Shown here in pieces: positions 1 to 46,523 of a stretch of 64,000 nucleotides of DNA; positions within the stretch are counted from its first letter, which is position 1, and the number at the start of each line of letters is the position of its first letter. The notes beneath the pieces were generated by a model. It made no database searches. It was not told where the DNA came from and saw only the letters and a list, made by a program, of their open reading frames with translations. Made by a program: the position numbers and the translations under genes. The stretch lies in sequence record NC_041906.1; one strand, given 5' to 3'. The DNA comes from Escherichia phage EC1-UPM.

Positions 1-133
1 ATTTTTGCATATGAAAAGTAGCATAGTTATGTATGGCTATAGTGCTACACCTAGGGCTACACCCTTACACTCAACCATCCCCCCCGGTATGTTGACGGTG
101 TAGCCACTACCCTACCCCACCTTACACATTACA

Positions 134-146
134 CATGCTCCGCATG
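134..146 (+). promoter_or_regulatory. Hairpin promoter candidate (virion-RNAP early promoter type), copy 1
   Basis: CATGC-TCC-GCATG: 5-bp stem, 3-nt loop TCC, 44 nt upstream of ORF 190; same loop and architecture as copies at 753, 1025, 4540. Confidence 0.4.
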
Positions 147-189
147 TTATGGACATGTCGTCCTATCATCAACTATTGGAGCTATCATC

Positions 190-513
190 ATGACTACTAC
201 CGCTACTGTACGTATGACCGCAGGAACTTTACTTGGTACTGTTAACTCAGCTGCTACTACTGTTGCAGATACATTCAGCACAGCAACTAAAGCAGTAGGT
301 ATGCTTAATTCATATGTTAGTACGATGGCAGAGAAACAAGCCATTCGTACTAAATTAGAAATGCATACCTTTGTTAACAAATTAGCTGAAGAAACAGCTA
401 TGACTGAGACTCTGCGTAAGAAAAGCATCGAGGAATTCTGCAAGGATTCTGAGAACGCTCGTATCTATAACGCAGAATATTCCAAAGTCATTGACATCCT
501 GACTAAAGAATAA
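190..513 (+). CDS. hypothetical early protein (107 aa)
   Basis: ORF with GGAG RBS ~10 nt upstream; followed by intrinsic terminator. Confidence 0.5.
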   Translation: MTTTATVRMTAGTLLGTVNSAATTVADTFSTATKAVGMLNSYVSTMAEKQAIRTKLEMHTFVNKLAEETAMTETLRKKSIEEFCKDSENARIYNAEYSKVIDILTKE

Positions 514-521
514 ATCCTCAA

Positions 522-548
522 GGAGACTCTTCGGAGTCTCCTGTTTTG
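522..548 (+). terminator. rho-independent terminator
   Basis: GGAGACTC-TTCG-GAGTCTCC stem-loop followed by TGTTTTG. Confidence 0.6.
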
Positions 549-600
549 AACATTAGATAGTTCAACTATTCTGCATAAAAAGTTAAAAGAGATTCCTACT

Positions 601-747
601 ATGAGCAAACTAGAAAACGCATTTATCTTAACTGTTTGTGTACTTGCAGTTGTTGTGATGGTTTCCGTTCACATTGGAAAACCTCTGGTAAACACTGACT
701 ATGGTAATGGTCAGAAAGTAAAATCCATCTTGCTAATGGATAAGTAA
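601..747 (+). CDS. small hydrophobic protein (48 aa), below ORF-track cutoff
   Basis: ATG at 601, stop TAA 745-747; hydrophobic core ILTVCVLAVVVMVSV; my own translation. Confidence 0.3.
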   Translation: MSKLENAFILTVCVLAVVVMVSVHIGKPLVNTDYGNGQKVKSILLMDK

Positions 748-752
748 AAACA

Positions 753-769
753 AAGCTGTTCCACAGCTT
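753..769 (+). promoter_or_regulatory. Hairpin promoter candidate, copy 2
   Basis: AAGCTGT-TCC-ACAGCTT: 7-bp stem, 3-nt loop, 33 nt upstream of ORF 802. Confidence 0.4.
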
Positions 770-801
770 ACGGATACATTTCAACCAATTAAGGAGCATC
801 C

Positions 802-1017
802 ATGAACGTAGAGAATATCCGTATGATTGAGAATTGCTTTAGCAATAAACCTGTAGACCTCAGCAATGCAAGAAGGTCTACAGATAAAGAGTATGGAGAG
901 TTCCTCTCCTTACGCGATGAATACCGTATGCAAGGGCATGTTGAATTACATGCCTATCTGCATAACTCAGGCTTCTTCATGGATAAACTTGAAGCTGAAA
1001 CAGGTTGTCCATTCTGA
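802..1017 (+). CDS. hypothetical early protein (71 aa)
   Basis: ORF with AAGGAG RBS. Confidence 0.5.
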   Translation: MNVENIRMIENCFSNKPVDLSNARRSTDKEYGEFLSLRDEYRMQGHVELHAYLHNSGFFMDKLEAETGCPF

Positions 1018-1024
1018 AAACCAG

Positions 1025-1039
1025 GGCTGCTCCGCAGCC
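1025..1039 (+). promoter_or_regulatory. Hairpin promoter candidate, copy 3
   Basis: GGCTGC-TCC-GCAGCC: 6-bp stem, 3-nt loop, upstream of ORF 1145. Confidence 0.4.
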
Positions 1040-1144
1040 TTTGGATGATTTATGCATCCACTAATCATTGAACTTTTATCCTTTTGTTTGGGTGTTCTCA
1101 CCGACGAGTTCACCCGTAAATCACATAAATCTGGAGAGTACAAA

Positions 1145-1525
1145 ATGGCTATTCAAAAATTCACTTTCGGTCAATCTAACGCTGCTGCTTCTACTGCTAA
1201 AACTGACAAACCAAAAGCTCAGTTCTGGCTGAACATTGGTTATGTAGCTAATGAAGGCTCTGATGATGAGAAATTCATCTCACTGCCTACTGGTATCCCA
1301 CTGGATACTCAGGAGCCGCTGCCTACTAATAGCAGCAATGCTGACTTCCGTGCTATGCGTTGTGCACAGAACGACTTGCTGGAACAGTTAATCCAATATG
1401 CTCAGAACCTGGAACCAGGTGAGGAAGGTATCATTAACCTGCAAGTTCAGCTAAGACGCGTGAAAGCAGAGGCTGCTGACATCCCAGCAGACGAGAATAA
1501 ATATGCTCGTAAACTGACTTTCTAA
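1145..1525 (+). CDS. hypothetical early protein (126 aa; internal ATG of ORF 1052..1525)
   Basis: ATG at 1145 preceded by GGAGAG RBS; followed by terminator. Confidence 0.5.
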
Positions 1526-1534
1526 TCAACCACT

Positions 1535-1564
1535 AGACTCCCTTCGGGGAGTCTTTTATTTTTA
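1535..1564 (+). terminator. rho-independent terminator
   Basis: AGACTCCC-TTCG-GGGAGTCT followed by TTTATTTTTT. Confidence 0.65.
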
Positions 1565-1665
1565 ATTAGACGATAAGCTATTTCTACTTTTTGAGTATCT
1601 TTAGACGAAGGGTACTGAAACAGTAACCAGATAGATATAGATTTATATTAGAAGAGGAATTAACC

Positions 1666-1854
1666 ATGTTAGACTTCATCGCTTTCTGTGTAATATTCTA
1701 CTTTCTGGGTTGGAAGTTACGTCATAAATGGTTGCTTATTGCTAAGCTGCCATTCGTTACTATCGAGTGTCTCATTGCTAGTGTTAAACACAAGAAAGCA
1801 ATGACTCAGTACTACAAGCAACAAGCAGAAGAGTTTGCAAAGAGGAACCAGTGA
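1666..1854 (+). CDS. small membrane protein (62 aa)
   Basis: ORF with N-terminal hydrophobic segment FIAFCVIFYFLGW; AGAGGA RBS. Confidence 0.45.
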   Translation: MLDFIAFCVIFYFLGWKLRHKWLLIAKLPFVTIECLIASVKHKKAMTQYYKQQAEEFAKRNQ

Positions 1855-2039
1855 TATTCACTAACATAGAAGATGCTATTGAAGAATGTATCTTTCGTAG
1901 GTATCACACTGGTGTACAGAAACGACACTATGGTGTTGTACAGCTCAATGGTTATCAAATGGTTGTAAGAATTGTACGTAACAATAAACCTTTTAACTTT
2001 ATGTGGAGTACTAAATCATGCGTAAATCACTTATTTTAG
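1851..2039 (+). CDS. hypothetical protein (62 aa); alternative model 2017..2147 (43 aa) in another frame
   Basis: ORF overlapping previous stop; ambiguous with the short ORF that ends just before terminator at 2151. Confidence 0.3.
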   Translation: MIFTNIEDAIEECIFRRYHTGVQKRHYGVVQLNGYQMVVRIVRNNKPFNFMWSTKSCVNHLF

Positions 2040-2150
2040 GTAATAAATCTGACGTACAGAAGATGAAAGAGCGTCTGGCTGCTAAGAAACAGACATCTGA
2101 ACCAGTACGTAAGATTGTTACCTTCAACCACCCATGTATCAAATAACTAG

Positions 2151-2183
2151 GAGTCCTCCATTGGGGGGACTTCTATTTTTTAT
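2151..2183 (+). terminator. rho-independent terminator
   Basis: GAGTCC..GGACTT stem, loop ATTGG, followed by TCTATTTTTT. Confidence 0.55.
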
Positions 2184-2224
2184 TCTTGAATAGTTAGATA
2201 TGTATTTAAACAGGAGAAATAACC

Positions 2225-2542
2225 TTGAATGAAATTGTTTGTATACTTCCTCATTCAGCTAAGATAGCTGACAGGAACATACGTATCCACTTACCATTCC
2301 CATTAAGTAATCCATTTGCTCGTAATGAAAGAACCACAGTAGAAGATATAGAGGTAGCTTATGAGGCTTACCTTCGTAATCGTCTTATTAGTGGTGACAA
2401 GTTAATTACAGCAGAGATGGAAAGGATTGCATCCTTTGTAACAGATAGTACAGGTAAGCCTGTTGGCTTAATTGGTACTGAATCTGATGTGAATGTTATT
2501 CGTAAAATATTAATGGAGGCACTAAGTGAACAACCTCAGTGA
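2225..2542 (+). CDS. hypothetical protein (105 aa, TTG start)
   Basis: ORF with AGGAG RBS 9 nt upstream of TTG. Confidence 0.4.
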   Translation: MNEIVCILPHSAKIADRNIRIHLPFPLSNPFARNERTTVEDIEVAYEAYLRNRLISGDKLITAEMERIASFVTDSTGKPVGLIGTESDVNVIRKILMEALSEQPQ

Positions 2543-2759
2543 TGTAATTGTAGGTAATGAGATATTCGTTGACCAAAAAGGCTATGCCCGAATTAAACTA
2601 AAGGGTAATAACAGAACTATTGTTCGTAAGGTGTACTCTAAACCTTTTAGCAATTTCTCTATTGATGAAGTACGTATTAATAACAAGATGTACTTCATAG
2701 ATAGTAAAGTATCTGTATGCCATACAGATGGTAAAACCTCTCTTGAATATACTTACTAA
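2526..2759 (+). CDS. hypothetical protein (77 aa, GTG start)
   Basis: ORF with GGAGG RBS. Confidence 0.4.
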   Translation: MNNLSDVIVGNEIFVDQKGYARIKLKGNNRTIVRKVYSKPFSNFSIDEVRINNKMYFIDSKVSVCHTDGKTSLEYTY

Positions 2760-2771
2760 GGAGTAAGCAAA

Positions 2772-2993
2772 ATGCTGTTCAGCACTAATTATGGTATTTG
2801 CCCGATTTGCAATAAAGGAAGAGGAGTTGCCAATCATAAGAAGTGTAGTCGTATCCTACAGAAACGACGGAACCAGAAGGAATGGGATAAGATATTGGAA
2901 AACCAACACAAAGATGAGTTCAAGGAGACAGCTGTTAAAGCATCTACTCAGCTCATTCGTCGTACTAACTTCATAGAAGGTTATCAGAAATGA
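2772..2993 (+). CDS. hypothetical protein with CxxC pair (73 aa)
   Basis: CPIC...KKC cysteines; RBS GGAG. Confidence 0.4.
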   Translation: MLFSTNYGICPICNKGRGVANHKKCSRILQKRRNQKEWDKILENQHKDEFKETAVKASTQLIRRTNFIEGYQK

Positions 2994-3346
2994 AACTAAT
3001 AGTAGCTGGTGGCAGAGACTTCGTAAATACCCAAGTAATGATTACAGTATTAATGGATTTAGTGGAGAAGGGTAAGATTGACCCTAATCCAGAATTAGTA
3101 TGTGGTATGGCTCGTGGAGCAGATATGCTTGCATATAGCCTATGGGCTAATAACAAAATGCCTATTCATAATTTCCCAGCAAACTGGGATAAGTATGGAA
3201 AATCCGCTGGTTATAGACGTAATCAGGAAATGGGTGAATTTGCAGATGCTGCTGTATGTTTCTGGGATGGTAAATCCAAAGGAACCAAGCACATGATTGA
3301 TATCATGAATAGGCTTAATAAACCTGTATATGTTGTGAGGTACTAA
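2990..3346 (+). CDS. SLOG-family (DUF2493/YspA-like) protein
   Basis: KLIVAGGRDF ... GMARGADMLAYSLWA ... ANWDKYGKSAGYRRNQEM resembles recalled SLOG/DUF2493 signature. Confidence 0.5.
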   Translation: MKLIVAGGRDFVNTQVMITVLMDLVEKGKIDPNPELVCGMARGADMLAYSLWANNKMPIHNFPANWDKYGKSAGYRRNQEMGEFADAAVCFWDGKSKGTKHMIDIMNRLNKPVYVVRY

Positions 3347-3601
3347 ATGATTATTACGTATCCTACAGGCAAGAATGTGGAATATATGGGACATACCATC
3401 CAAGTGCCTCACTGGGTTAAGTATATAGCGTTATATACTCGTCAATATAAGAGTGCTAATACCTCGTTAATAGGATTCTCTAAGAAGCCTAAACTAACAG
3501 AAAACAATATCTGGGTATCCTCTGGGAGACAAGAAGAGATTGGTTTTTGTGATTTGAGTATTGTCGATAATAACATTTATGGGACATTGAGAAAGGTATG
3601 A
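3347..3601 (+). CDS. hypothetical protein (84 aa)
   Basis: ORF, GAGGT RBS. Confidence 0.4.
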   Translation: MIITYPTGKNVEYMGHTIQVPHWVKYIALYTRQYKSANTSLIGFSKKPKLTENNIWVSSGRQEEIGFCDLSIVDNNIYGTLRKV

Positions 3602-3918
3602 AAACTATTCTAGTAGTTCATGATTCTACATTTACTGATGTAGATAAGATGATGCGTAATATTGATTATGTATCTCAGACAAGCCAGGCATTCAATGAAG
3701 AGTTTACTCTGTACTGTAATGCTGAATCACCATTAGTTCCTATCCTTAAGGAATCAGGTCTGCCATTCTCTACAGAGAACTTCCCGGAAGAACCAGACTA
3801 TGTAATCTCATTTATCTATGACTTACATGATGGTTCTGAAACTAGTGAATTAGCTATGAACCAGTGGCGTAGTAAACGTCCTGTGTTCGCATTCCAGGTA
3901 CTTAAACCAAAGGATTAA
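3598..3918 (+). CDS. hypothetical protein (106 aa)
   Basis: ORF overlapping upstream stop. Confidence 0.45.
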   Translation: MKTILVVHDSTFTDVDKMMRNIDYVSQTSQAFNEEFTLYCNAESPLVPILKESGLPFSTENFPEEPDYVISFIYDLHDGSETSELAMNQWRSKRPVFAFQVLKPKD

Positions 3919-3920
3919 TC

Positions 3921-4271
3921 ATGAAAGAAATCTTAGTATTCACTACCAATGTACTTGGACAACATACTAATGCTGCTGCCAAGTTAGCTTATAAGAAGCA
4001 TGGTGCTCGCTGGGGTATGGCCTATGGTCATTATGGTAATAGCTTTGCCATTCCGGTAAGGGATGGTAGTGGTGACCGAATCAAAGAGGGTGCTATTTAT
4101 GGCTTCATTGAGGGTTTTATTGCTTATGCATCTGTTAATCCACAATGGGATTTCAAAGTAATGAGAATGGACTTTATGGACCCATACCTGTTCTTCAATG
4201 TTACGGGCAACGTACTGTTACCGGAAGCATGGCGTAAATACTTAGGAAATGCTTACAACTATTGGAGTTAA
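3921..4271 (+). CDS. hypothetical protein (116 aa)
   Basis: ORF, AAGGA RBS. Confidence 0.45.
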   Translation: MKEILVFTTNVLGQHTNAAAKLAYKKHGARWGMAYGHYGNSFAIPVRDGSGDRIKEGAIYGFIEGFIAYASVNPQWDFKVMRMDFMDPYLFFNVTGNVLLPEAWRKYLGNAYNYWS

Positions 4272-4273
4272 TA

Positions 4274-4534
4274 ATGACTTATGAAGAATTATGGTCTGCT
4301 CAAGTCAGAGCCAGAGCACTCACACGACACGATATCTATTGTGCATTACAGAATGAATTAAAGAGCCGTACTAAACTAGGTTACATATCCGGCTTAATTA
4401 AAATACCTATGACTAGCCTAGTCTGGCCTTATCAGAAGAAAAGTAATGAGTTTAATGGCAATGGTCTGCATGTACGTATCGACTACATCGGTAATGAAAA
4501 TAGTATTCGTATTACCTTTTGGACTAAGCGTTAG
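4274..4534 (+). CDS. hypothetical protein (86 aa; ATG inside ORF 4262..4534)
   Basis: ATG at 4274 with GGAG RBS 7 nt upstream. Confidence 0.45.
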   Translation: MTYEELWSAQVRARALTRHDIYCALQNELKSRTKLGYISGLIKIPMTSLVWPYQKKSNEFNGNGLHVRIDYIGNENSIRITFWTKR

Positions 4535-4539
4535 GTAAT

Positions 4540-4554
4540 AGCTGCTCCGCAGCT
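4540..4554 (+). promoter_or_regulatory. Hairpin promoter candidate, copy 4 (upstream of RNAP II genes)
   Basis: AGCTGC-TCC-GCAGCT followed by TTTGG, as in copy 3; 34 nt upstream of ORF 4588. Confidence 0.4.
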
Positions 4555-4587
4555 TTTGGTTATTAATCACATTTAGGAGAATAAGCG

Positions 4588-5406
4588 ATGTACTCATCTA
4601 TTGAACATCAGAAGCAACTCGAAAAACTATTCAATAAAAATCAGCTCTTGTCTCGCATGAGGAAGGAATTCGAGGACTCCGAAGAAATTGACTTTAAGGC
4701 ATTCGCTGCCTATTTGGAAATTGATTATAAGCTGCTCATTGATGCAATGGTGCAGATTGCCCTACATAAACGTGCTGACATTCAGACTATGATTGGCTCC
4801 CTCATGAGCCACTCAGATGATGCTCAGTACATCGCTGACTGTCTGTATAAGATGGCAGAGAATGACTGCTTCAACTATGACCCTACCATCGACAAGTTCG
4901 GTGTTATCTATGAGATTAGTGAAGATGTTCAAATGGAACTGGAAGCATTCCAATACCCATTGCCTATCGTAAGTGCTCCTAAGCCTGTTAAGTGTAACCG
5001 TGATACTGGCTACTACGAGAGCAGAGGAAGCATCATCCTCAAGAAGAACCATCATGAGATGGATGTCTGTCTTGACCACATCAACCGTATGAACAATCAA
5101 CGTCTCAGCATTAACTGGGACGTTGCTAACTATGTAAAAGACTCACGTCCTAACATGGATAAACCCAAAGAAGGTGAGACCCGTCAGGACTATGAGAAAC
5201 GTGTTAAAGCCTTTGAGAAGTACAGTCGTACTGCTAAGGAAGTAATGGAGTTAGTAACTAAAGAAGGTAATAACTTCTCACTGGCTCACAAATACGACAA
5301 ACGTGGGCGTACATATGCCTGTGGCTACCACATTCAATATCAGGGAACCAGCTACAACAAAGCTGTTGTAGAATTTGCTGATAAAGAATTAGTAAACGAA
5401 GATTAA
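4588..5406 (+). CDS. phage RNA polymerase II small subunit (N4 gp15-like)
   Basis: 272 aa ORF immediately upstream of the catalytic T7-like RNAP subunit; position matches N4 gp15/gp16 pair. Confidence 0.65.
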   Translation: MYSSIEHQKQLEKLFNKNQLLSRMRKEFEDSEEIDFKAFAAYLEIDYKLLIDAMVQIALHKRADIQTMIGSLMSHSDDAQYIADCLYKMAENDCFNYDPTIDKFGVIYEISEDVQMELEAFQYPLPIVSAPKPVKCNRDTGYYESRGSIILKKNHHEMDVCLDHINRMNNQRLSINWDVANYVKDSRPNMDKPKEGETRQDYEKRVKAFEKYSRTAKEVMELVTKEGNNFSLAHKYDKRGRTYACGYHIQYQGTSYNKAVVEFADKELVNED

Positions 5407-5462
5407 TCATACAATAAGCAGGCTCTCCATAGTGGGGAGCCAAGAAGCAAAAGGAACATAAA

Positions 5463-6680
5463 ATGCAACTTTTAACAGCAGCTCAGTACCTGAAAGTAGA
5501 TATCGCGAACTCATATGGCTTAGATAAAAAGACATGGGATGAACGTATTGCTTGGTTCGATGAGAACGAAGCTAACCTGCTTAATCTGGTAGATGAAGCT
5601 GAAGATTCTGCTCTGTTCTTTGCAGGTGTAAACGCATGGAAAGATATGAAAGCAGGTAAGCCTATTGGTTATGCTGTAGCATTGGATGCTACATCATCAG
5701 GCTTGCAGTTACTGGCCTGTCTGACTGGTGACCGTTCTGCTGCTGAACTGTGTAACGTAGTTAACTACATGGGTGAGAATGGTAAGCCATTACGTCGTGA
5801 TGCTTATACAGTTATCTATCACAAGATGCTGGACATCCTTGGTGAAGCATCACGTATTAAACGTAGTGACACTAAGCAGGCAGTTATGACTGCATTCTAC
5901 GGCTCAGAAGCCAAGCCTAAAGAAGTATTCGGTGAAGGTATTCGTCTCAAGACTTTTGAGAATGTAATGGAAACTGTTGCTAGTGGTCCTTGGGCACTTA
6001 ACAAGTTCTTACTGCAATGTGGTAATCCTGATGCCAACCGTTACATATGGGTACTTCCTGATAACTTCCACGCTGTCATTAAGGTCATGGTTCCTGAAGT
6101 ACAGACCATTAACTTCTTAGGTAAACCATTCGACATCACTCGTATGGTTCAAGGTACTGAAGAGAAGACCCGTATGCTCTCTGCTAACATCACCCACTCT
6201 ATTGATGGAATGGTGGTACGTGAGATGCTGCGTCGTTGTAACTTCAACAGTGACTTAGTGGAAGCTGTGCGAGAACTCTGCGATGAAGGTCCATCAGAAT
6301 ATGGGGAGATTGCAGGTAATCTGGAGAAGGTACAAGAGCTATGGAGCCATTATGAGAAATCTGGCTTCTTATCCGTATCAATCCTGGATTATCTTGACCC
6401 ATGTACTATTGCTTATGTAGACCGTCAGGTAATAGCAGATATGATTGACTCTATGCCTAAGAAGCCATTCCCTGTAATAACTGTACATGACTGCTTCCGT
6501 TGCCATCCTAACTACGGTAATGACCTGCGTCGTCAGTACAATCAGATTTTGTCTGACATTGCTAAGAGTGACCTGCTGGGATTCATCCTGTCTCAGGTGC
6601 TGGGACAAGAGTTCTCTGCTGGTAAACTGGATGACAGCCTCTGGCAGGACATTCTTGAAACAGACTATGCGTTGAGTTAA
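5463..6680 (+). CDS. phage RNA polymerase II catalytic subunit (T7-like single-subunit RNAP, N4 gp16-like)
   Basis: Motif A DATSSGLQ, motif B RSDTKQAVMTAFYGSE, motif C VHDCF, all T7-RNAP-like. Confidence 0.8.
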   Translation: MQLLTAAQYLKVDIANSYGLDKKTWDERIAWFDENEANLLNLVDEAEDSALFFAGVNAWKDMKAGKPIGYAVALDATSSGLQLLACLTGDRSAAELCNVVNYMGENGKPLRRDAYTVIYHKMLDILGEASRIKRSDTKQAVMTAFYGSEAKPKEVFGEGIRLKTFENVMETVASGPWALNKFLLQCGNPDANRYIWVLPDNFHAVIKVMVPEVQTINFLGKPFDITRMVQGTEEKTRMLSANITHSIDGMVVREMLRRCNFNSDLVEAVRELCDEGPSEYGEIAGNLEKVQELWSHYEKSGFLSVSILDYLDPCTIAYVDRQVIADMIDSMPKKPFPVITVHDCFRCHPNYGNDLRRQYNQILSDIAKSDLLGFILSQVLGQEFSAGKLDDSLWQDILETDYALS

Positions 6681-6686
6681 TAAACT

Positions 6687-6721
6687 AGCCTCATTCCTTC
6701 GGGAGTGAGGCTTTATTTTTT
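6687..6721 (+). terminator. rho-independent terminator
   Basis: AGCCTCATTCC-TTCG-GGAGTGAGGCT followed by TTTATTTTTT. Confidence 0.6.
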
Positions 6722-6738
6722 GCTTGGAGGTAACAACT

Positions 6739-6921
6739 ATGCTAATCCCTTTTGAAGTAATCTCTCAGCTAATACTGATAGTTTTATCTGTACTGGTTCT
6801 GTCTACAATCGTTCATGCCCATAAATCTAAGTTTGCTTGCTACTGTTATGGAGCATACTCACTAGGCTGCTTTGTAATAGCAGGATGGATAGCTTTTGCT
6901 ATCTACTGTGTAAACATCTAA
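6739..6921 (+). CDS. small membrane protein (60 aa)
   Basis: ATG with GGAGG RBS; two hydrophobic segments. Confidence 0.4.
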   Translation: MLIPFEVISQLILIVLSVLVLSTIVHAHKSKFACYCYGAYSLGCFVIAGWIAFAIYCVNI

Positions 6922-6948
6922 CCATCCTTTAGGAGGGTTTATTTTTTT
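6920..6948 (+). terminator. rho-independent terminator (imperfect stem)
   Basis: AACCATCC-TTTA-GGAGGGTT followed by TATTTTTTT. Confidence 0.45.
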
Positions 6949-6995
6949 GTCTGTCATGTATACTAATCCTGCTATTTACTTATGAGGAAATTGAT

Positions 6996-7829
6996 ATGCC
7001 AACTTTGAAAGTAGGTTTTAACAAAACCACTAATGTTGCAACTGTACTGGATGCAGGTGGTTCTATCCCAGGTGGTTCCGTAGAAGTAGGTACTTTTGTA
7101 CACCCAGATGCCACTTATCCGGATAGTTTGGTTATCTTCCATGGTGTTCGTGACCTGCTGTATAAACGTTCTGCTAAAGACCCATCTAAAGCAGGCTTCT
7201 GGCCTAACAACATCGTGGATATGCAGTCCATCTCTATTGATATGAAAGCTACTCCACGACTAACTATTGCTACCAAACTGCCTCGTGTAGCCTCTGCTAT
7301 CGAAGGTGAAGACATCAACTGGCACGTTGATGTAGCAGGTGGCAAAGCACCATTTACTTATAAATGGCAATTCAAAGCTAAAACCGCTGGTGCAGTATTC
7401 ACTGATATTGATTCAGGTGATAACGCATCTGCTATTACTGCAACATTGACCCTTAATGACGTAACGGCTGCTTCTGCTGGTACTTATAAAGTAATTGTTA
7501 CTGATGCTAATGGAACCACGGTAGAAGATGAGTCGTTGTTGGCTGTAGGCTACTATGAAGCAAGCTCACTGGTAGCTACCCCTGCTTCACTGGCTCTGTC
7601 TGTTGCTGCCGATACTACTGATGGTAAGAATGTAACAATTGCTGCTATGCCTGTTGGTTCTTCTTCTGGTGCTTTGTCTATCAAGACTGCTCCAGAATCT
7701 GGACGTGCTACGACTACCATTGCCGGTAACGTACTGACGGTTAAACCAGTAGCTGCTGGTGATGCTACTTCTGTAGTAGTTACCAACGGTAAGGTCGATG
7801 TAACCATCCCTGTTACTGTTGCAGAATAA
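6996..7829 (+). CDS. Ig-like domain protein, probable capsid decoration protein (N4 gp17-like)
   Basis: T/S/A/V-rich beta-strand repeats (YKVIVTDANGTTV, VTVKPVAAGDATSVVV) typical of Ig-like domains; sits just after RNAP II genes as gp17 does in N4. Confidence 0.55.
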   Translation: MPTLKVGFNKTTNVATVLDAGGSIPGGSVEVGTFVHPDATYPDSLVIFHGVRDLLYKRSAKDPSKAGFWPNNIVDMQSISIDMKATPRLTIATKLPRVASAIEGEDINWHVDVAGGKAPFTYKWQFKAKTAGAVFTDIDSGDNASAITATLTLNDVTAASAGTYKVIVTDANGTTVEDESLLAVGYYEASSLVATPASLALSVAADTTDGKNVTIAAMPVGSSSGALSIKTAPESGRATTTIAGNVLTVKPVAAGDATSVVVTNGKVDVTIPVTVAE

Positions 7830-38600: not shown

Positions 38601-41600
38601 GCGACCTTGAGCATCAAACTCAATGTTGTTAGCACCCATAATGGTATCGAACTTCTGCTGTGCATAATAACGGTCAGCAGGGTTAGTACTATCTGGGTCA
38701 GCCATGAATGCTTCGACGGTCAGGTTCTTAGTAACGTGTGTATAGTATTCCTGTGCACGAGCCATGGCAGCAGGATTAATAGCAGCCTCGGTAGCGAGTG
38801 CAGCAACAATGTTAGTGAAGAGACGTTGTTCCTGCATGTTCATGGTGAAGCCATGAGCCTGAACATCACGAGTTACTTTGGTTGCATTCACTACTGCATC
38901 AGAGAACTTACCTTTACGAATTACTTGCTGTACTGGTTCCGAACCAATGTAGTCAGTAATCAGTTTATCAAAGGTTTTCCCTAACTCTTCCAGACGAGTA
39001 TTGTTACCGTATGCTTTGTTATGGAACAGAGTAGTGTCTTTAGCTACAGCAGCAGTAGGAGCTTGTCCACGCATTACTACAGCAGAGTTAAACAGTAAAC
39101 CTGAGAACATATCATCTGCATTAGCAGGAGCTTTCTTACGACCAAATACCAGACGTTTGATTGCCTCATATACAGCCTGAACCATAGCCTTAAGTGCAGT
39201 GGTTTTCTTCTGCTTACTAATCAATTCTCGGTTGGTTAAACCCCAGGCCATGTACTCGTTCAATGCAGCAGCTTTAGCCATTGCTGGTTCAATGAAGCCA
39301 TTAGACAAGTGACCATTAATGGTATTAAGTGCATCAGCATATGCTTCACGTACTGCCGGAGATTCATCCTTAACATCCAGAGTACGGAACTGGTTCATCA
39401 GGTCTTCAATGTTCTGGACTGCTTCATTAGGAGTACCCTCGTAGTGAGCCAGTACAGATTCAAAAGTAGAAGCATGTACCAATTCATGAACCAGAGTCTC
39501 TAAGGAAGGGGTAACTAAGTAGATGGTTTTATCTTCAAAGTTAGTCCAGCCATATGCATTACCAGCTTCAGCAGCTTCAATATCTTCCGGTGCTGGGCGA
39601 GTAATATTCTTCTCAATGGCGTAGGCATCCAGTTGAGCAGGTGTACCGTAAACAACTTTATAGTCTTTAGCAGCAAGGGATTTCTGTATTTCTTTCAATA
39701 CTGCTTGCTGTTCAGGAGACATCTCTTTAGCCAGTTTAGTAATGGCAGTATTAGACAGTAGACGTACACCAGATTTCAGTACACGACCAACCATCTCCAT
39801 AGCAGGTACTTCAACCACTGGCACTTCCTTCACTGGTTCTACCTTCGTTGGTTCCGCTTTAGTAGCACGTACTGCTTCACGACGCTTGTTTAGTTCAGCA
39901 TCAAACAGTTCGTTCAGCTTAGCTACTTGCTGGTCTACAGTAAGACCTTCCAAAGAAATTTTACCGTTGTTCACATAAGGAGCGCCTACAGCAGCCATCT
40001 GGTCAACAGTGACCTGTACCTGGTCCATTACCTTGTGACGAATATCTACACCCAAAGCAATGTTACGCAGATTACGCTCAATCAATGCAATACCAGAATC
40101 TCTAATCATAGAAATTTTATAATCTCTATCACCATCTACTCTGGCAATATGAGCACGTTGCTCAAAGTCTAAAGCAGACTTCGCAATAGCATCTATTGCT
40201 GCATCGGATAACTTATTTAAATCAACATTCTTAGCAAACTTAGAGAAAGACTCATATACATTCTTGATAGGGTTACCCTGCCAGGAAATATATACAGCCT
40301 CATTAGCTTTACGGCTTGCATCAGTAATGTCATTGATACCAATGTTCATACCATCAAAGATTTTCAGGGTATTCTTCGGAGCACCTTTCATAGTAGAAAG
40401 GGTCTGCATCATCATGCCATCACCAGTACCGATGGTCATAAATGGAATACCTGCTACACCTGCCTGCGAAGGAGCATAGATGCTCATTGGCACACGCATA
40501 CGGTCATCTAAGTTGGTAGCCAGTACCTGGTTAGCAACATCAGTGTTTTCACTGCCAGCAATGTAGAAAGTCTGTGAGCCAGTCTTAATCATTGGAGCCA
40601 GAGGAGCTAAGCTATTCTGAATTTCATTCAGTTCTTTCTGTGTTAAGAAATCACCCTTCTTCCATGTTGGGTCTTTTTCTTTTTCTGCCAGCTTAGCCTG
40701 TACTGCTTGTTGGAACATATCCTGCAATACCAGAGATTGAATCTGAGTAGCCTTCTGCAAATTCTCAGTAGAGTGCATCAACCCCTCACCAACAGTGAAC
40801 CGGATACCTTGTCTCATTGGCTCAACAAAGAAGTGCAGCATATTCTCTTGTAAGTTCTTCAGAGAATCCCCGGATACGGTAAACCCCTGGGGATTTAACT
40901 CACCAGTCAGAACACCATCTACTTCCTTAATAAATAACCTACCTTTGCGTTTGGCTGGAATTTTGCCAGTCAATGCTTCCATAGAAGTAAGGAAGGTATC
41001 CAGCATAGCCTGAGCATCAGCCTCAGACGCAGCCTCCTTACCAAACATCGCCATAGCCGGAGAAATGCTAGGGTCAGCAGCACGTGCTTTCAGAACATCG
41101 CTTAGGCGTTCATAAATGGAATCAGTAATTGCACTTACCATTTTGCCAGCAATACCACGAGCACCAGAACCATAGATGGTAATGGTCAGTGGGTTTTTGG
41201 CGATACCACGTTTCAGGTCCAGAGTACCATCTTCATTCAAGTTAAAATCTTTGATGAACAAATCCATTAACTTCTGGAGATGGTCTATCTGGTTTATAAC
41301 AGAAATATCCTTACTATAAGCATTGCGTAATTCATTTAGATAGAATTGCAGACTATTAGTAGATGCTTCATACAGGTCAACATCGTCTTCCTGAGTATGA
41401 TGCTCATTCATAGTCTTACCAGCTTTACCAAAGAACAAACCACCTTTAGCAGTATTCTTAATCCAGTTTGAAGTGAACTTACCTCCAGTCATTAATACCA
41501 TTGCGTTGATTGGACCGTTGGTTACACCATCAGCTTCAACGTACAAAGGAGTATTAAAGTTGGCACGGTCATCACTGTTCAGGTAACGGGCATATTCCAT

Positions 41601-44600
41601 AAGAGCCATGAGAGCTACAAAGGATTTATCATTACCAAGAGATGTTCTCAGGATATCCACTGCATCAGTTGGTAAGTATCCAGACTTATCAAACTCAACC
41701 ATCATATCTACAGCAGGCTTCAGCTTACCTTCCAGAGCTTTGGTAAGTTCTTCTGACATAGTTTCACGGGTCATTTTATGAACTTTGATACCCAATGCCT
41801 GAGCCAGTCCAAGCTGGAAGCCTGAAAAATCTTCGTTGTTCTGGTTCGATAAATCCAGGGTAGCTTTGGTAGGTAAGATAGCCTCACGAACCAGCTTAGC
41901 TGATTGGGGGGTATATTTACCTAACATCTGCATACGACCAACACGGGTCATATTGTAAGCATAGTGGATAGGTACAGAAGAAATGTCTTTACTCTGTGCT
42001 CTTACCTGTTCAATAACAGAGAACAATTGGTTATAAGAGTCTTCTACTGAACGGTTCTTACCTTCCAGCGATTTAGCGTGGTTCTCGTTAAGTAATTCTT
42101 TATTCAGAGTACCAGCACCCATCAGTTCGAGGATACGGTCTTTACCTAATGCCTCATAGAACTGAACCATTGGGGTATGTACAAAGAACTCTGTATCCTG
42201 TTCTGCTTTAAGAGCAGCTTTCTGTTCTGGAGTATTACGAACAGCAGGGTTACGTAACTGTGTATGAGCCACGGAAGGAATATCATCACCCAGATACAAT
42301 TTCTCTGCTGGTTCTAAGAGTACAGCCTCCTCGATAGCAGTAGGATAATTATTAATTGCATCATTATCTTCTAACTTATCAATGGTATACAGACCAATCG
42401 TCTTATTGGATTCTGGGTCAATCTCAGACACATCCAGCATAGACTCTTTAACTTCACCCATCTCAATGAAAGAAGACAGAATCTCTGTAGCCATTGCCAC
42501 TGGGATACCCTTGGTATAACCAAGTGGTGCATCGGCATTACGGTTAAGCCCCCAGTAAGACTCAATCTTTTGAGCCAGTGAGTTAGTAGCTTCAACCAGG
42601 GTCTGAGCATTCTCGAAGTCAGCCAGAATACCTTCTGGTAACAAAGACTCATTTACACCAGTAATAGCAGCTACGTCTTTCATGTCTTTAATGGCAGCAT
42701 TCTGTGTAGCAGTAAGTCGCCATTGCAGACCAGCAAGTACAGCAGTCTCTAACAACTGGTCATTGAACTTAAAGGTATCACCATCTTTTTCTACGATGTT
42801 AAGTAACTTACCACCCACCCAACGGTTAGCCTCAGTCCCTTCTGCAAAACGTTTACCAACGTTCTTGTTAGCAAGGAACTTAGCCAGACGGTCAGACAGG
42901 GTAGTCTTCAGAGTTTCACCGAAATCAAATAAGTCCTGATAACGCTTAATCACATCACTTGTGAGAGCGTTATTTTCTTTTTGAGTGAATGCTTCAAAGC
43001 GAGCAACGGAAGACAATGCTTTCTTAACATCAGTCAAAGGAGACTCGGAACCAATGGTACGAGACTTAGGTTCTTCTGGTAGAGAAAATGCTTTAAGGAA
43101 CTGGTTCGGTGTCTTGTCATTGTTATAGACAGGGAACACTGTTTCCATTTGAGATAGAGGTTTACCACCAACGGTATAGTCTGCTTTCAGTTGAGCCAGA
43201 GATACTTCTTCCTTCTCAACGTTATTAGTGTTACGCCCAGACGTATCTACACCAACCTGAATCAGTGCATTGTTTGCTTCTACAAATGATTGAACAGTAT
43301 TAAATTGTTCAGGAGTTAGTTTCTGATTATCAAATAGTTGTAAAGATACAAATGGTTGTTCACTGCCTTTGTAGAAGGTAGAGCGAATAGCACCAGTATC
43401 TAGTGACATATCTCGATAACCATCGTGTCCAAATACATCAGACAGACTGATGTGGTCGCCATTGGAACCAACAACAGTACCATCAGCAAATAACCATGGA
43501 CTCTCCCTACGATCACCATACTTATTAAGAGTATCTTGAGAAATGGTATTCTCTTTTACATAAGCATCCTGTTCAGATTCAGTAGGTTGCTCGATGGTAT
43601 CCTCATTAGTGAGGGTAGCATCCTGTTTTTCAGACTGATTCTCAGGTTCTTTTACAGGCTGTGGTTTAGACTCTTTAGTAGTGGGTTCTGTTTTAACAGC
43701 TTCACTAACAGAGGGTTTAGTCTGTACAGTAGGGGTAACTGGTTCCTGTTTTGTAACAGGAGTTTCATCAACCTGATTCACTGGTTCACTAGTCTGTTGG
43801 GATTGAGCAGCATCAAGATTGCCCTGACGGAACTCTTTAACTACCTGGGCAGCAGGCTTGTCTAGACGTGAATCCAATGGGGTAACTTTAACATGAGAAA
43901 CATTAAGCTCCGGGTAAGCCGTAGCAAGTGCGTTAGCAATATCAGCTACGGTCTTGGCTTCCAGTCCTACTTGCTGGGCAAACTTAACCGACTTGGTATC
44001 ATACGGATTGACACCGAGGCCAGTACGACTACGTACCCATTCACGCGAAGGAGTAAGAGCCTGATAATGGACAGACTTATTCTTATCCGCATTCCCAGAA
44101 ATCAGATGCTCATTCAACGCTCCGACCTTATTCTGCATGTGCTGGGCGAACTTCATAAAGTCGTCGAGATAAGCGGAAGCCAAATCGAAGTTACCAGAGT
44201 TGTACGCAGAACGAATGCGTTTAGCATGTTGCAACGCAGAGTACTGGCCTTCATTAGAACGAGACTCGTCGGTTTTAATTTGTTTACTAACAATGTCCTG
44301 AGGACGTAAGCCTAGTTCTTCTGCTTTAGCGTCAAATTCTCGTGCTCCTTGCAATAGAGCAGCAGCAGATTGCAGGGCAGCACGCTGACGATTCCCTAGC
44401 GTAATCTTACCTTCACTTGCATGTTTCAGAACCATGTTCACTGAGTCTGCATCCAGTACTTCTGGAGACATATCAGCAGCCATAGCAATGTTGTTTGCCT
44501 GGGCTTGGTTAGCTTCTTCAGTAGCCTTCAGTTTACCTGCTTCAGCCTGTTCCTGAATCATGGAATGAATAGCACGGAATGCACGGAGTACCTTCGGTGT

Positions 44601-46523
44601 ATTCTGAACGTTAGCCATCAGGCCAGAGAACTGGTCTACGATTGCAGCAGCAGGAGAACCTTGTTCCAGATTAGCCAGAGCACCTGGGTCACGGTTAATG
44701 AAGCTATCCATAGACATGATGTTGTCATACATCTGGATTGCAGCTTCCATTTGAACGTTAGGGTCTTCAGCAGTATTAACCAGGTCAGCCATTTTCTGAA
44801 TAGCTTCAACACGGTTAGTGGAACCAGAAACAGCTTCACGGATTGCAGGACTAGCTTGTTCTAGTTCTACTGGGTCAAACTTCATTGCCTGAGTTAAGTC
44901 AGCAGCATACTGAGTAGCAGCAGCTTTCTCTTCAGGAGAAATATCCATTGCATCTACTGCTTCCTGAACAGTTGCTTGTGCTTGTTCTGCCTGAGCAGTA
45001 GCTTCTTGTGCAGCAGCGTTAACTGTAGCGTCTGATACGGGAGATGCTTGTTCATTACGCTTAGCTACTTCTTCCCCACGTTGAACCAGAATGTTAGTAA
45101 TAGGAGAAGCTACTTTTGCTAGTGCCTTACCAGCCAGAGAAGCACCAGCCAGGGTAGTACGTACAGCAGGACCAACGGCAGCACCAGCAGCCTTAACAGT
45201 TGCACCAGGAGCTTGAGCAACTCCAGCAGAACCAAAGCCATACAACGCACCAAGACCAGTTTGTTCACCCACACCTTTAAGCAATTCACGATTAGCATCT
45301 ACATTACCTTGAATTGCTTTGTTCTGTGCAAACTGACTTGTACCAGACTGGATACCTTCTTCCACAGTTTCACGGAGCATGTTAGAACCAGCACCGGCCA
45401 GTGAACCTACCTTGAGTGGGTTAAGTTCAAACTTAGATACCAGTGGACCAGTAATAGCAGCAACCGGAGCAGTTAAGCCAGCAGCAGTGATACCTGTTTC
45501 AGATGCAGTCTGACGTCGTGCCTCTTCAGGAGTTAAGCCGTCTTTAATATGCTGTTGGTATACTGGGGATTTAGCAGCCAGTTCACTGAATGGCATTTCC
45601 ATAATTTCATTGGCAGTCTGTTGGTATGCACCACCAGCTTCCATACCACCAATTGCTATAGCAGGTGCAGCAACACGACCAGTAGCTAATGCAGTACGTG
45701 CAGGACGTGAACCTAATTCAGCAGCTAAGGTAATACCCTTAACAGCTTTATCTCCACCTACCATTACTTTACCTAGTGCAGATACACCACGAATTAATGG
45801 GCCACCGGTAAAGAGAGAACCAACACCCTCAGCCAGACCATCTGTAGCAGCCATGCCATTAGATAAGGTGTTAGCAACAGAATCATAAGCATCACGACCG
45901 ATACGAGACAGGGAAGCAACGAGTTCACTTTCTCCTTTATCAATATCCTGCTTATAGAGTTTCTCATTTTCCTGTGCAGATATTACGTTCTGGTTCTGTA
46001 CTACATTACGACGAGCATTCAATGCATCAGACTGTAGGTTGTGTACACCTTTATTCAACCAGTCAAGACCGGAAGCAATGGATGCCCCGGCATTATCATT
46101 GACCAAGCCTGTGCCAAGAGCAGCAATGCCCCCGAGGGTATTAGCAACACCAAGACCAACACCAGAAAGGGTATCACCAAGTGCTTCACCATATGTACGA
46201 CTCTTAGTTAAATCACGACGAACAGCATTAGCTGCATTGACACGAGCATTGAGAATATCCATTCCTTGCTCATTGCCATATTTATTTATGATTTCGAGAG
46301 GAGAGGCATTAGTAAAATCTGCCTGAATAGAACCTGGGTCAAATGCACCAGCACCTAAGTTACCAGCACGACCTGCCTGTAATTGGTAAGCGTTCTGTGG
46401 AGTTAATTGGAAAGGGTTTTGCCCTTGTTCAGCTTGTTTCCGAGAGGTTGCAGTAGAGACATCGACTTGCTTAGCAGTAGTGATGCTGTCTGCGAAACCT
46501 GCCAGACGGTCAAATGTTGACAT
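35685..46523 (-). CDS. giant virion-encapsidated RNA polymerase (vRNAP, N4 gp50-like)
   Basis: ~3600 aa ORF, hallmark of N4-like phages; ATG at 46523 with AGGA RBS (track start 46541 is TTG). Confidence 0.9.
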   Translation of the reverse strand: MSTFDRLAGFADSITTAKQVDVSTATSRKQAEQGQNPFQLTPQNAYQLQAGRAGNLGAGAFDPGSIQADFTNASPLEIINKYGNEQGMDILNARVNAANAVRRDLTKSRTYGEALGDTLSGVGLGVANTLGGIAALGTGLVNDNAGASIASGLDWLNKGVHNLQSDALNARRNVVQNQNVISAQENEKLYKQDIDKGESELVASLSRIGRDAYDSVANTLSNGMAATDGLAEGVGSLFTGGPLIRGVSALGKVMVGGDKAVKGITLAAELGSRPARTALATGRVAAPAIAIGGMEAGGAYQQTANEIMEMPFSELAAKSPVYQQHIKDGLTPEEARRQTASETGITAAGLTAPVAAITGPLVSKFELNPLKVGSLAGAGSNMLRETVEEGIQSGTSQFAQNKAIQGNVDANRELLKGVGEQTGLGALYGFGSAGVAQAPGATVKAAGAAVGPAVRTTLAGASLAGKALAKVASPITNILVQRGEEVAKRNEQASPVSDATVNAAAQEATAQAEQAQATVQEAVDAMDISPEEKAAATQYAADLTQAMKFDPVELEQASPAIREAVSGSTNRVEAIQKMADLVNTAEDPNVQMEAAIQMYDNIMSMDSFINRDPGALANLEQGSPAAAIVDQFSGLMANVQNTPKVLRAFRAIHSMIQEQAEAGKLKATEEANQAQANNIAMAADMSPEVLDADSVNMVLKHASEGKITLGNRQRAALQSAAALLQGAREFDAKAEELGLRPQDIVSKQIKTDESRSNEGQYSALQHAKRIRSAYNSGNFDLASAYLDDFMKFAQHMQNKVGALNEHLISGNADKNKSVHYQALTPSREWVRSRTGLGVNPYDTKSVKFAQQVGLEAKTVADIANALATAYPELNVSHVKVTPLDSRLDKPAAQVVKEFRQGNLDAAQSQQTSEPVNQVDETPVTKQEPVTPTVQTKPSVSEAVKTEPTTKESKPQPVKEPENQSEKQDATLTNEDTIEQPTESEQDAYVKENTISQDTLNKYGDRRESPWLFADGTVVGSNGDHISLSDVFGHDGYRDMSLDTGAIRSTFYKGSEQPFVSLQLFDNQKLTPEQFNTVQSFVEANNALIQVGVDTSGRNTNNVEKEEVSLAQLKADYTVGGKPLSQMETVFPVYNNDKTPNQFLKAFSLPEEPKSRTIGSESPLTDVKKALSSVARFEAFTQKENNALTSDVIKRYQDLFDFGETLKTTLSDRLAKFLANKNVGKRFAEGTEANRWVGGKLLNIVEKDGDTFKFNDQLLETAVLAGLQWRLTATQNAAIKDMKDVAAITGVNESLLPEGILADFENAQTLVEATNSLAQKIESYWGLNRNADAPLGYTKGIPVAMATEILSSFIEMGEVKESMLDVSEIDPESNKTIGLYTIDKLEDNDAINNYPTAIEEAVLLEPAEKLYLGDDIPSVAHTQLRNPAVRNTPEQKAALKAEQDTEFFVHTPMVQFYEALGKDRILELMGAGTLNKELLNENHAKSLEGKNRSVEDSYNQLFSVIEQVRAQSKDISSVPIHYAYNMTRVGRMQMLGKYTPQSAKLVREAILPTKATLDLSNQNNEDFSGFQLGLAQALGIKVHKMTRETMSEELTKALEGKLKPAVDMMVEFDKSGYLPTDAVDILRTSLGNDKSFVALMALMEYARYLNSDDRANFNTPLYVEADGVTNGPINAMVLMTGGKFTSNWIKNTAKGGLFFGKAGKTMNEHHTQEDDVDLYEASTNSLQFYLNELRNAYSKDISVINQIDHLQKLMDLFIKDFNLNEDGTLDLKRGIAKNPLTITIYGSGARGIAGKMVSAITDSIYERLSDVLKARAADPSISPAMAMFGKEAASEADAQAMLDTFLTSMEALTGKIPAKRKGRLFIKEVDGVLTGELNPQGFTVSGDSLKNLQENMLHFFVEPMRQGIRFTVGEGLMHSTENLQKATQIQSLVLQDMFQQAVQAKLAEKEKDPTWKKGDFLTQKELNEIQNSLAPLAPMIKTGSQTFYIAGSENTDVANQVLATNLDDRMRVPMSIYAPSQAGVAGIPFMTIGTGDGMMMQTLSTMKGAPKNTLKIFDGMNIGINDITDASRKANEAVYISWQGNPIKNVYESFSKFAKNVDLNKLSDAAIDAIAKSALDFEQRAHIARVDGDRDYKISMIRDSGIALIERNLRNIALGVDIRHKVMDQVQVTVDQMAAVGAPYVNNGKISLEGLTVDQQVAKLNELFDAELNKRREAVRATKAEPTKVEPVKEVPVVEVPAMEMVGRVLKSGVRLLSNTAITKLAKEMSPEQQAVLKEIQKSLAAKDYKVVYGTPAQLDAYAIEKNITRPAPEDIEAAEAGNAYGWTNFEDKTIYLVTPSLETLVHELVHASTFESVLAHYEGTPNEAVQNIEDLMNQFRTLDVKDESPAVREAYADALNTINGHLSNGFIEPAMAKAAALNEYMAWGLTNRELISKQKKTTALKAMVQAVYEAIKRLVFGRKKAPANADDMFSGLLFNSAVVMRGQAPTAAVAKDTTLFHNKAYGNNTRLEELGKTFDKLITDYIGSEPVQQVIRKGKFSDAVVNATKVTRDVQAHGFTMNMQEQRLFTNIVAALATEAAINPAAMARAQEYYTHVTKNLTVEAFMADPDSTNPADRYYAQQKFDTIMGANNIEFDAQGRSSLLPTFVGLAMVSEEVRKVLADIPVMKADKKSGNTVDAMLTNIGTAAMASLNARVAGDTKASNVQEGMDALAQTIMQTSLNAQSFYDSVATPTGNAIDRANQYLVDSIDVLSTRALGGAREVAANTKNPLVKGAAHAAQLVAAIATEKNGAIVAEGVMAAMNQGKVWQPFHDLVNDIIGRTKSNASVYDLIKAVRAQVQADRQQFREHLPTTIASKFSRKLTNDEWKAMHTGMGKTDLAVLRDTMPLDEIRDLLTDQKIVDREVNKLEADLQKQAGRNWPLISRKSKQLAQYMINGTVGNNLLRNATAISRLLGERKTTSSIVDVAQLDKLITLYALEAMNKTDREMLSSLAQTEIEGMDFATSYLVGQRKDEMAKAKSDSRATLNQYKGYIPSENKQGVNLIVAEDSQFADLIEKSYVRLGTYQGSSANRGSARSYYFAPVQAQAPFSQGILQNVRNTAGGADLGTGFTMGTMVAGRITDKPSVDRITKALARGERGNEPLLPVYDANGNVVAYEQSIDPNMLKHIEGDNHLARAIGVWRGRQVEEAKAQRFNDMLIENLHSMYENDLKMSASNKFQYVNLFDSKLDPVTADALKLMNSETRRKAESLFGPGELWVRRDMLNDALGYRAASVGDAWSGNSRWSPETLDTFKKAMLGVFGNRAYKYVMGGENLVQNLVKEAKTLIVVKSVVVPAVNFLANLYQMVARGVPVKNIAKSIPQKTAEINQYLKSRLRQVDAEAELRAATNPNQIRKLKAEIQSITDSHKRLSIWPLLEAGEFSSIADAGIGRDDILITEGKLHEYMDKLADKLPKSVRNAGRYALITKDTALFQGIQKTVEYSDFIAKAIIYDELTQRKGKTREEALGRVTEEFINYDRLPGRFRGYMESVGLMWFYNFKIRSAKVAVSMIRNNPVHAAMAMLAPTPTMFGNVGLPIQDNIFSIAAQGNLGYSFGFGQGLRAHNLNPWLNLTN

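Follow-up and report, generated by a model that had tools for sequence, protein, structure and literature searches.

A stretch of 64,000 nucleotides from Escherichia phage EC1-UPM (NC_041906.1; hereafter the window) carries, at 2990..3346 on the + strand, a gene for a protein of 118 amino acids that is a standalone, single SLOG domain of the YAcAr family (YspA/cpYpsA-related SLOG, PF10686, formerly DUF2493). We consider it an even bet that this SLOG protein binds a nucleotide or ADP-ribose derivative, or processes its N-glycosidic bond, and that it does so early, with enzymes of DUF4326 and Macro type, to counter host defence. The open reading frame (ORF), the family, the fold, the conserved pocket residues, the domain fusions and the operon context were computed here, and the fusions of related SLOG domains to other predicted domains make up the strongest functional evidence of the analysis. 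According to the reading that we favour, the conserved loops of the YAcAr-clade module would form one nucleotide-binding pocket. Early in infection the protein would bind a ligand that is of adenine-nucleotide type or derived from ADP-ribose; this could be a soluble molecule made from NAD+ or else an ADP-ribose adduct. The protein would then cleave a ribosyl N-glycosidic bond or hold the ligand for partner enzymes. It would work with the DUF4326-like and Macro-like products of its early operon, and the outcome would be neutralisation of NAD+/ADP-ribose-based host immunity.

Family, fold and predicted pocket of the SLOG protein

The gene reads from ATG to TAA. Its start codon forms an ATGA overlap with the stop of the preceding 73-residue ORF and the next ORF (3347..3601) begins one base past its own stop, as is usual where the genes of a phage operon are translationally coupled. 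The sequence agrees with AGC31520.1/YP_009598285.1 (Escherichia phage EC1-UPM) at 100% identity, and the protein matches PF10686 with 39.8 bits (E 4.1e-10; gathering cut-off 28.2 bits) over residues 1-69, covering all 66 model positions, as well as PHROG 289 (E 3e-31). Homologs form 7033 clusters at 90% identity (E<=1e-5) and 16,105 at 50% identity (E<=1e-3), and tblastn matches were found in 841 phage GenBank records spanning mycobacteriophages, vibriophages, N4-like, phiEco32-like and jumbo phages and a giant virus. Given the Pfam and PHROG matches, the thousands of homologous clusters, the 841 phage records and the coupled gene junctions, 2990..3346 is a real gene and not a chance ORF. The initial annotation, made from the DNA letters, had read the ORF with exactly these ends as a SLOG/DUF2493-like Rossmann protein, citing two signatures, GGRDF and GMARGADMLAYSLWA. 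Both are present, at residues 7-11 and 39-53 of the 118, and the assignment holds, with PF10686 above its cut-off and the predicted structure closest to those of the SLOG superfamily. NCBIfam and PADLOC scans of the protein gave no match, phmmer against PDB sequences returned only spurious designed-repeat matches, and the family profile against PDB sequences found only a marginal DprA segment (E 0.11).

The names under which the family is deposited vary: the 841 records are annotated as GTP-binding, DprA-like or DUF2493, and RefSeq calls YP_009598285.1 "GTP-binding domain" where UniRef has "YspA cpYpsA-related SLOG domain-containing protein". A GTP-binding protein, as labelled by RefSeq, pharokka and PHROG 289, has the database label as the sole point in its favour; the sequence holds no Walker A P-loop (GxxxxGK[ST]), Pfam gives YAcAr and the fold is SLOG rather than P-loop NTPase, and this explanation is very improbable.

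An AlphaFold2 model built from an alignment of 54 homologs (pLDDT 96, pTM 0.89) contains five beta-alpha units and is predicted to be a Rossmannoid three-layer alpha/beta fold whose sheet has five parallel strands; its nearest structures are from other SLOG clades. The prediction thus favours the SLOG fold claimed in the initial annotation over the absence of any Rossmann/SLOG fold. The structural matches of the model, with which a Foldseek search agrees, were as follows (score last).

ShosA, a DprA-like antitoxin (8zva), 13.6
YpsA, 12.3
DprA (3maj), 11.5
LOG-like TM1055, 11.0
DprA (4ljk), 10.7
Moco carrier protein, 10.3
ThsA SLOG domain with 3'cADPR, 10.2
LOG phosphoribohydrolases, about 9.5

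The ThsA SLOG domain (type I Thoeris, 7uxs) is a 3'cADPR sensor in a host protein, where it is fused to a SIR2 effector; it has about 15% sequence identity to the SLOG protein, and the likeness is one of fold. With the YAcAr family itself the protein shares the fold and the conserved loops, with no structural difference, and members of that family are likewise phage-encoded, usually standalone and linked to DUF4326, Macro and NADAR. Membership leaves the function unsettled, because the family has no demonstrated biochemical activity.

Conservation was assessed in an alignment of 83 relatives with 41-55% identity to the SLOG protein. The following residues are invariant or conserved in at least 90% of the sequences: A6, G7, R9, G39, A41, G43, D45, P63, A64, W66, G70, A73, G74, R77, N78, M81, W92, G94, S96, G98, T99, M102 and I103. 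Among them, G43 and D45 show no variation, and conservation is 96% or more at G7, R9, G39 and A41. The pocket motifs conserved in the family are G7-G8-R9, G39-x-A41-R-G43-A-D45, P63-A64-x-W66, G70-K-x-A73-G74-x-x-R77-N78-x-x-M81 and W92-D-G94-x-S96-x-G98-T99-x-H101-M102. Both loops that characterise YAcAr proteins are found, the glycine-rich loop after strand 1 (A6-G7-G8-R9) and the GxxxGxD loop after strand 2 (G39-M-A41-R-G43-A-D45). In the AlphaFold2 model all conserved residues map to strand C-termini or helix N-termini, and are thereby predicted to occupy the canonical Rossmannoid ligand site.

DprA and ShosA being the best structural matches of the model, the protein might instead be a minimal DprA-like binder of single-stranded DNA (ssDNA), whose pocket would contact ssDNA phosphates and bases as in DprA/ShosA. 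It would then protect or process phage ssDNA, or aid recombination and repair, and so indirectly blunt nuclease-type defences. We grade this rival as serious, and hold it to be rather unlikely. The motifs G-[GS]-R and G-x-A-[RK]-G-x-D, which contact ssDNA in DprA/Smf and ShosA (8zva, 4ljk, 3uqz), are shared, with GGR and GxARGxD of the SLOG protein aligning with GSR and GLAKGID of DprA. The near-invariant R9 aligns with the GSR arginine (HpDprA R52, equal to ShosA R139), which is required for ssDNA binding (PMC12961424); R77, invariant within the RN motif, would correspond to HpDprA R143, judged by motif order only. R52, R143 and R170 are the conserved arginines by which HpDprA binds ssDNA. 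In contrast to DprA, however, the SLOG protein is a 118-residue single domain, half the size of the DprA Rossmann domain, and has neither a winged-helix domain nor the SAM domain and extra helices that DprA/ShosA use for dimerisation and RecA binding; nor does it match PF02481 (DNA_processg_A) at E<=0.1.

The fold is also shared with the LOG phosphoribohydrolases (Cg1261 5wq3, TT1465 1wek, PpnN/YgdH), in which Arg and Thr pocket positions are equivalent. A housekeeping LOG-like nucleotide 5'-monophosphate phosphoribohydrolase, converting for example AMP to adenine and ribose-5-phosphate, would reshape the nucleotide pool for phage replication without a direct role in immunity. This would fit the frequent occurrence of nucleotide-metabolism genes next to SLOG in other phages and the AMP modelled with high AlphaFold3 (AF3) confidence into ORF83 of phage PhiDruSM1 (10.1101/2025.06.06.658234), whose R/N/T pocket residues are conserved here as R77, N78 and T99. 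However, the SLOG protein is much shorter than the LOG enzymes and does not retain their signature PGGxGTxxE: it reads WDGKSKGTKHM from W92 to M102, with His at position 101, which aligns with the catalytic Glu of LOG (among the 83 relatives H in 62, N in 11 and D in 4). A Pfam LOG (Lysine_decarbox) scan of the protein found no match. With the accessory status of the gene and the nature of the fusion partners, both described below, also against it, such a housekeeping enzyme is quite improbable.

Fused homologs and the early operon

Fusions were surveyed in the best 150 of the 50%-identity representatives, 40 of which are long enough for extra domains. The extra domains in these 40 were DUF4326 (11), NADAR (4), DUF488-N3a (4), Macro (3) and DUF488 (1), making DUF4326 the commonest domain fused to close SLOG homologs. 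The following are examples.

P0122, SLOG + DUF4326, 59% identical to the SLOG protein
P0134, DUF4326 + SLOG
P0160, NADAR + SLOG
P0189, Macro + SLOG
P0215, A1S_2505-like + SLOG, with the A1S_2505-like part N-terminal, 47% identical to the SLOG protein
P0254, DUF488-N3a + A1S_2505-like + SLOG

In the window the DUF4326-like, SLOG and A1S_2505/Macro-like genes are separate but lie in the same operon, within 2 kb. Judged by sequence profiles, the domain types that are split into genes in this phage are thus joined in single polypeptides elsewhere, in both orders. The pattern agrees with a survey of viral SLOG domains (Iyer, Burroughs and Aravind 2022, PMC9503650), which found them to be mainly of the YpsA-like clade, to occur in 7% of small, 19% of medium and 31% of jumbo phages and to combine with Macro, NADAR and DUF4326, and which proposed that they sense or cleave ADP-ribose derivatives from host immunity. 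That the partners are mostly ADP-ribose-processing domains argues against a DprA-like function, for which recombination proteins would be the company, and against a LOG-like one, for which nucleotide-salvage domains would be. On the side of the DprA-like rival, weak, sub-threshold PF02481 matches occur in 10 of the 40 long homologs, and fusions have been reported to HNH, exonuclease and helicase domains (PMC9503650) and to an SF1B helicase (ICP1 HelB).

EC1-UPM belongs to the N4-like podoviruses (Schitoviridae, genus Gamaleyavirus), and over its first 8 kb the window shares 92-94% identity with Shigella phage pSb-1 and Escherichia phage ECBP1. The SLOG gene lies in a run of overlapping + strand genes between two terminator-like hairpins.

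2148..2175, + strand, terminator-like hairpin with 12 pairs and a T run, upstream end of the SLOG transcription unit
2225..2542, + strand, diverged DUF4326-like gene, homolog of N4 gp9, PHROG 464
2526..2759, + strand, gene of the unit
2772..2993, + strand, 73-residue ORF, PHROG 6887, directly upstream of the SLOG gene, its stop overlapping the SLOG start; absent from N4
2990..3346, + strand, SLOG gene
3347..3601, + strand, 84-residue ORF, PHROG 1972, directly downstream of the SLOG gene; absent from N4
3598..3918, + strand, gene of the unit
3921..4271, + strand, A1S_2505-family gene, homolog of N4 gp14, compact Macro-like predicted fold
4262..4534, + strand, gene of the unit
4588..5406, + strand, N4-type RNA polymerase II subunit gene RNAP1, downstream of SLOG in the same unit
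5463..6680, + strand, N4-type RNA polymerase II subunit gene RNAP2, downstream of SLOG in the same unit
6687..6712, + strand, terminator-like hairpin that closes the SLOG transcription unit

N4 RNA polymerase II is an early product and is required for middle transcription. Since its subunit genes lie downstream in the same unit, on the same strand and about 1.2 kb from the SLOG gene, synteny supports early expression of the SLOG gene, and the early setting proposed in the initial annotation is borne out on this basis. Across positions 1..7000 there are fewer sigma-70-like promoter matches than expected (7 against 20.3) and more terminator-like hairpins (15 against 4.3), which fits N4-type early transcription by a phage polymerase. 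Strong + strand hairpins stand at 1535-1554 as well as at the two ends of the unit, 2148-2175 and 6687-6712.

The three-gene block 2772..3601 is absent from N4, where the corresponding site lies between gp10 and gp11 (N4 1763..2259), while the PHROG 6887, SLOG and PHROG 1972 genes are present together in Gamaleyavirus phages. The block looks like a small accessory cassette, and the SLOG gene is accessory within the subfamily because N4 does without it. The product of 2772..2993 starts with a zinc-ribbon-like motif, CPICNKGRG...HKKC.

Against 2225..2542 the Pfam DUF4326 model is weak (E 0.046, below the Pfam threshold), whereas an iterated profile from the DUF4326 domain of the fusion protein P0132 matches at E 5e-11, limited to the first ~50 of 70 positions. 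A second, canonical DUF4326 gene stands between the homologs of 3598..3918 and 3921..4271 in relatives such as pSb-1 (gp51), Mimir124 and N4 (gp12), and is missing from the window. For the product of 3921..4271 the structural matches were to macro domains (score last).

Alphavirus nsP3 macro, 7.8
M. tuberculosis DarG macro, 7.7
Chikungunya virus macro, 7.6
TARG1, 7.0
Poa1p, 6.5
DarTG macro with ADP-ribose, 6.5

Pfam and PDB sequence searches gave no support for a Macro assignment, and the A1S_2505 profile showed no sequence-level match to solved Macro domains. Since the scores are moderate and the sequence searches lend no support, we label the predicted product Macro-like and not a proven Macro domain. 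The Mimir124 ortholog is called "ADP-ribosylglycohydrolase" in a pharokka-based annotation.

The genes 3598..3918 and 3921..4271 were also tried as SLOG paralogs and rejected (6% and 1% hhalign probability against the family profile). No other NAD/ADP-ribose genes (Nudix, NADAR, Nampt, Nmnat) were found elsewhere in the 64-kb window. The remaining window has ordinary N4-like content, including a giant ORF of ~3617 amino acids at 35688..46541 on the - strand, which presumably encodes the N4-type virion RNA polymerase, together with HNH_3 endonuclease and AP2-domain ORFs, two of each.

PhiDruSM1 ORF83 and the weighing of the readings

Our literature search for an experimentally characterised phage SLOG yielded the knock-out of PhiDruSM1 ORF83 only. 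Ojima et al. (bioRxiv 10.1101/2024.04.14.589459) deleted genes of this Queuovirinae phage singly and found that loss of ORF83 ("Smf/DprA Rossmann fold"), which is dispensable for growth, lowers plating on hosts with AVAST (Avs) type III. The same plating phenotype followed deletion of ORF55 (DNA ligase), ORF72 and ORF84, and all these mutants formed small plaques. In the EVADES study (10.1101/2025.06.06.658234) the AMP-bound AF3 model of ORF83 has a pocket of R89, N90, T112 and D114; homologs of ORF83 with a C-terminal DUF4326 were noted, and ORF83 was found to be without DprA dimerisation or RecA-binding residues and to score low in AF3 with RecA.

The Dru_SM1 protein WZK98996.1 (P0348) has R89, N90, T112 and D114 at exactly the ORF83 positions and shares a 90%-identity cluster with Seurat gp80 (46156-46548 of viral locus L002), which matches PF10686 (4.9e-18) and aligns to the SLOG protein with 29% identity (E 5e-8). 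By these residues and this clustering, ORF83 is assigned to PF10686 and thus to YAcAr. The papers on ORF83 call it Smf/DprA-like or LOG-like, without mention of the YAcAr family. ORF83 resembles the SLOG protein in being small, standalone, phage-encoded and of PF10686, and both have GGRDF, a GxxDGxD loop, FPAxW and AGxYRN, with R77/N78 equal to R89/N90. They differ in that identity is 29%, ORF83 has a 12-residue insert after the PAxW motif, and its beta4 loop reads FPGGAGTMD (LOG-like) as against WDGKSKGTKHM here. Their sources also differ, a Queuovirinae siphovirus and an N4-like podovirus.

ORF83 bears on the DprA-like rival in two ways: its phenotype is common to that of a DNA ligase, which favours an ssDNA-binding role, whereas its missing dimerisation and RecA-binding residues and its low AF3 score with RecA (10.1101/2025.06.06.658234) speak against one.

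The initial annotation went further than the fold, proposing that an early nucleotide-binding protein could sequester a signal nucleotide. As a non-catalytic sponge the protein would capture an immune signal such as 3'cADPR, His-ADPR, N7-cADPR or a cyclic oligonucleotide. Its small size, early position and accessory status would suit this role, a sensor function for ADP-ribose derivatives has been put forward for viral SLOG domains (PMC9503650) and ThsA offers a precedent. Set against these points, known sponge families include no SLOG. In the papers on Tad1, Tad2, Acb2, Acb4, Sequestin, Lockin and TadIV-1 there is no reference to SLOG or to a Rossmann fold; these comprise the Sequestin/Lockin paper and a review from 2026 in which no SLOG figures among the sponge families. 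Neither PADLOC nor other scans gave a match for the SLOG protein. Nothing points to CBASS. The invariant polar residues R9, D45, R77, N78, S96 and T99 and the hydrolase fusions fit an enzyme or targeting module at least equally well, and we regard a sponge as unlikely.

The favoured reading, in which the protein binds or processes an ADP-ribose-type ligand with DUF4326-like and Macro-like partners, fits the fold, the pocket conservation, the fusions, the operon context, the accessory status and the ORF83 phenotype. Which ligand is bound, whether the protein is catalytic and its role in counter-defence are inferred. Such a role is plausible because of the DUF4326/Macro-like context, the fusions and the ORF83 knock-out phenotype; hence, of the initial interpretation, the SLOG domain of nucleotide-binding type stands, while counter-defence is graded as plausible.

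Several observations weigh against this reading. As many as ~110 of the 150 best representatives are standalone. A survey of neighbours in 71 diverse viral loci from IMG/VR, by blastp clustering and Pfam scans, found no dominant conserved neighbour, the largest cluster covering 7 of the 71 loci. Pfam domains in ORFs within two genes of SLOG were heterogeneous, with Metallophos in 6, DUF4326 in 4, pyrimidine-dimer glycosylase in 4 and OGG in 4, followed by 5'-3' exonuclease in 3 and nicotinamide mononucleotide (NMN) transporter in 2, and the glycosylase, exonuclease and PnuC counts are inflated because several loci are near-duplicates. When the ~6-kb flanks were searched with profiles, 9 loci had a DUF4326-like gene and 2 an A1S_2505-like one, for the most part in N4-like phages. 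Since the flanks are heterogeneous and the co-occurrence falls mostly in N4-like phages, the DUF4326-like/SLOG/Macro-like three-gene arrangement is mainly an N4-like feature. LOG-type catalysis by the SLOG protein is not assured, because the Glu position is occupied by His in this protein and is variable across the family. The FPGGAGTMD of ORF83 is replaced by FWDGKSKGTKHM in the SLOG protein and, given this different loop and the 29% identity, the ORF83 phenotype may not transfer. It may also be indirect, reflecting for example DNA damage tolerance against a nuclease-type effector, since it is common to the DNA ligase and other genes and comes with small plaques.

In several unrelated viral contigs (L014/L016/L018, L021/L068/L074/L075 and others) SLOG adjoins Pyr_excise (T4 endonuclease V-like), OGG/HhH-GPD, 5'-3' exonucleases or PnuC-type NMN transporters. 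The recurrence of DNA glycosylases and exonucleases among the neighbours is a further point for the DprA-like rival.

A further, hybrid reading is that the DUF4326-like, SLOG and Macro-like genes constitute a split three-enzyme system, with domains that are fused elsewhere (DUF488, Macro-like and SLOG in the single polypeptide P0254), and that this system dismantles an ADP-ribose-based immune product, the SLOG protein then representing a new enzymatic, non-sponge class of counter-defence; we offer it tentatively and consider it doubtful. NADAR domains and Macro domains of the DarG type are able to take ADP-ribose off ssDNA bases, and a DprA-like SLOG could then recognise ADP-ribosylated nucleic acid. 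One candidate target of the system would thus be ADP-ribosylated ssDNA or RNA produced by DarT-/CmdT-type toxins, with the SLOG protein recognising the nucleic acid. The glycocyclic ADP-ribose signals of Thoeris are a second candidate.

Implications for viral SLOG proteins

The SLOG protein is a re-identified member of a known family, and the identical protein already stands under the correct family name in public databases; the viral distribution, the fusion partners and the predicted NAD+/ADP-ribose role of the family were published in 2022 (PMC9503650). For this locus our analysis adds confident confirmation of the SLOG fold by structural modelling, as well as the Macro-like character predicted for the A1S_2505-type neighbour, which is fused to this SLOG subfamily elsewhere. 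It further adds the assignment of the gp9-type neighbour to DUF4326 and the link between ORF83 and PF10686.

Few phage accessory domains that lack a demonstrated activity are as widespread as viral SLOG proteins. The locus described here is a convenient test case, with an E. coli host, a small accessory gene and two predicted partners nearby as separately deletable genes. Should the family turn out to break down or trap immune molecules derived from ADP-ribose, or to undo the ADP-ribosylation of nucleic acids, a common enzymatic form of counter-defence would join a repertoire that is so far mostly sponge-based.
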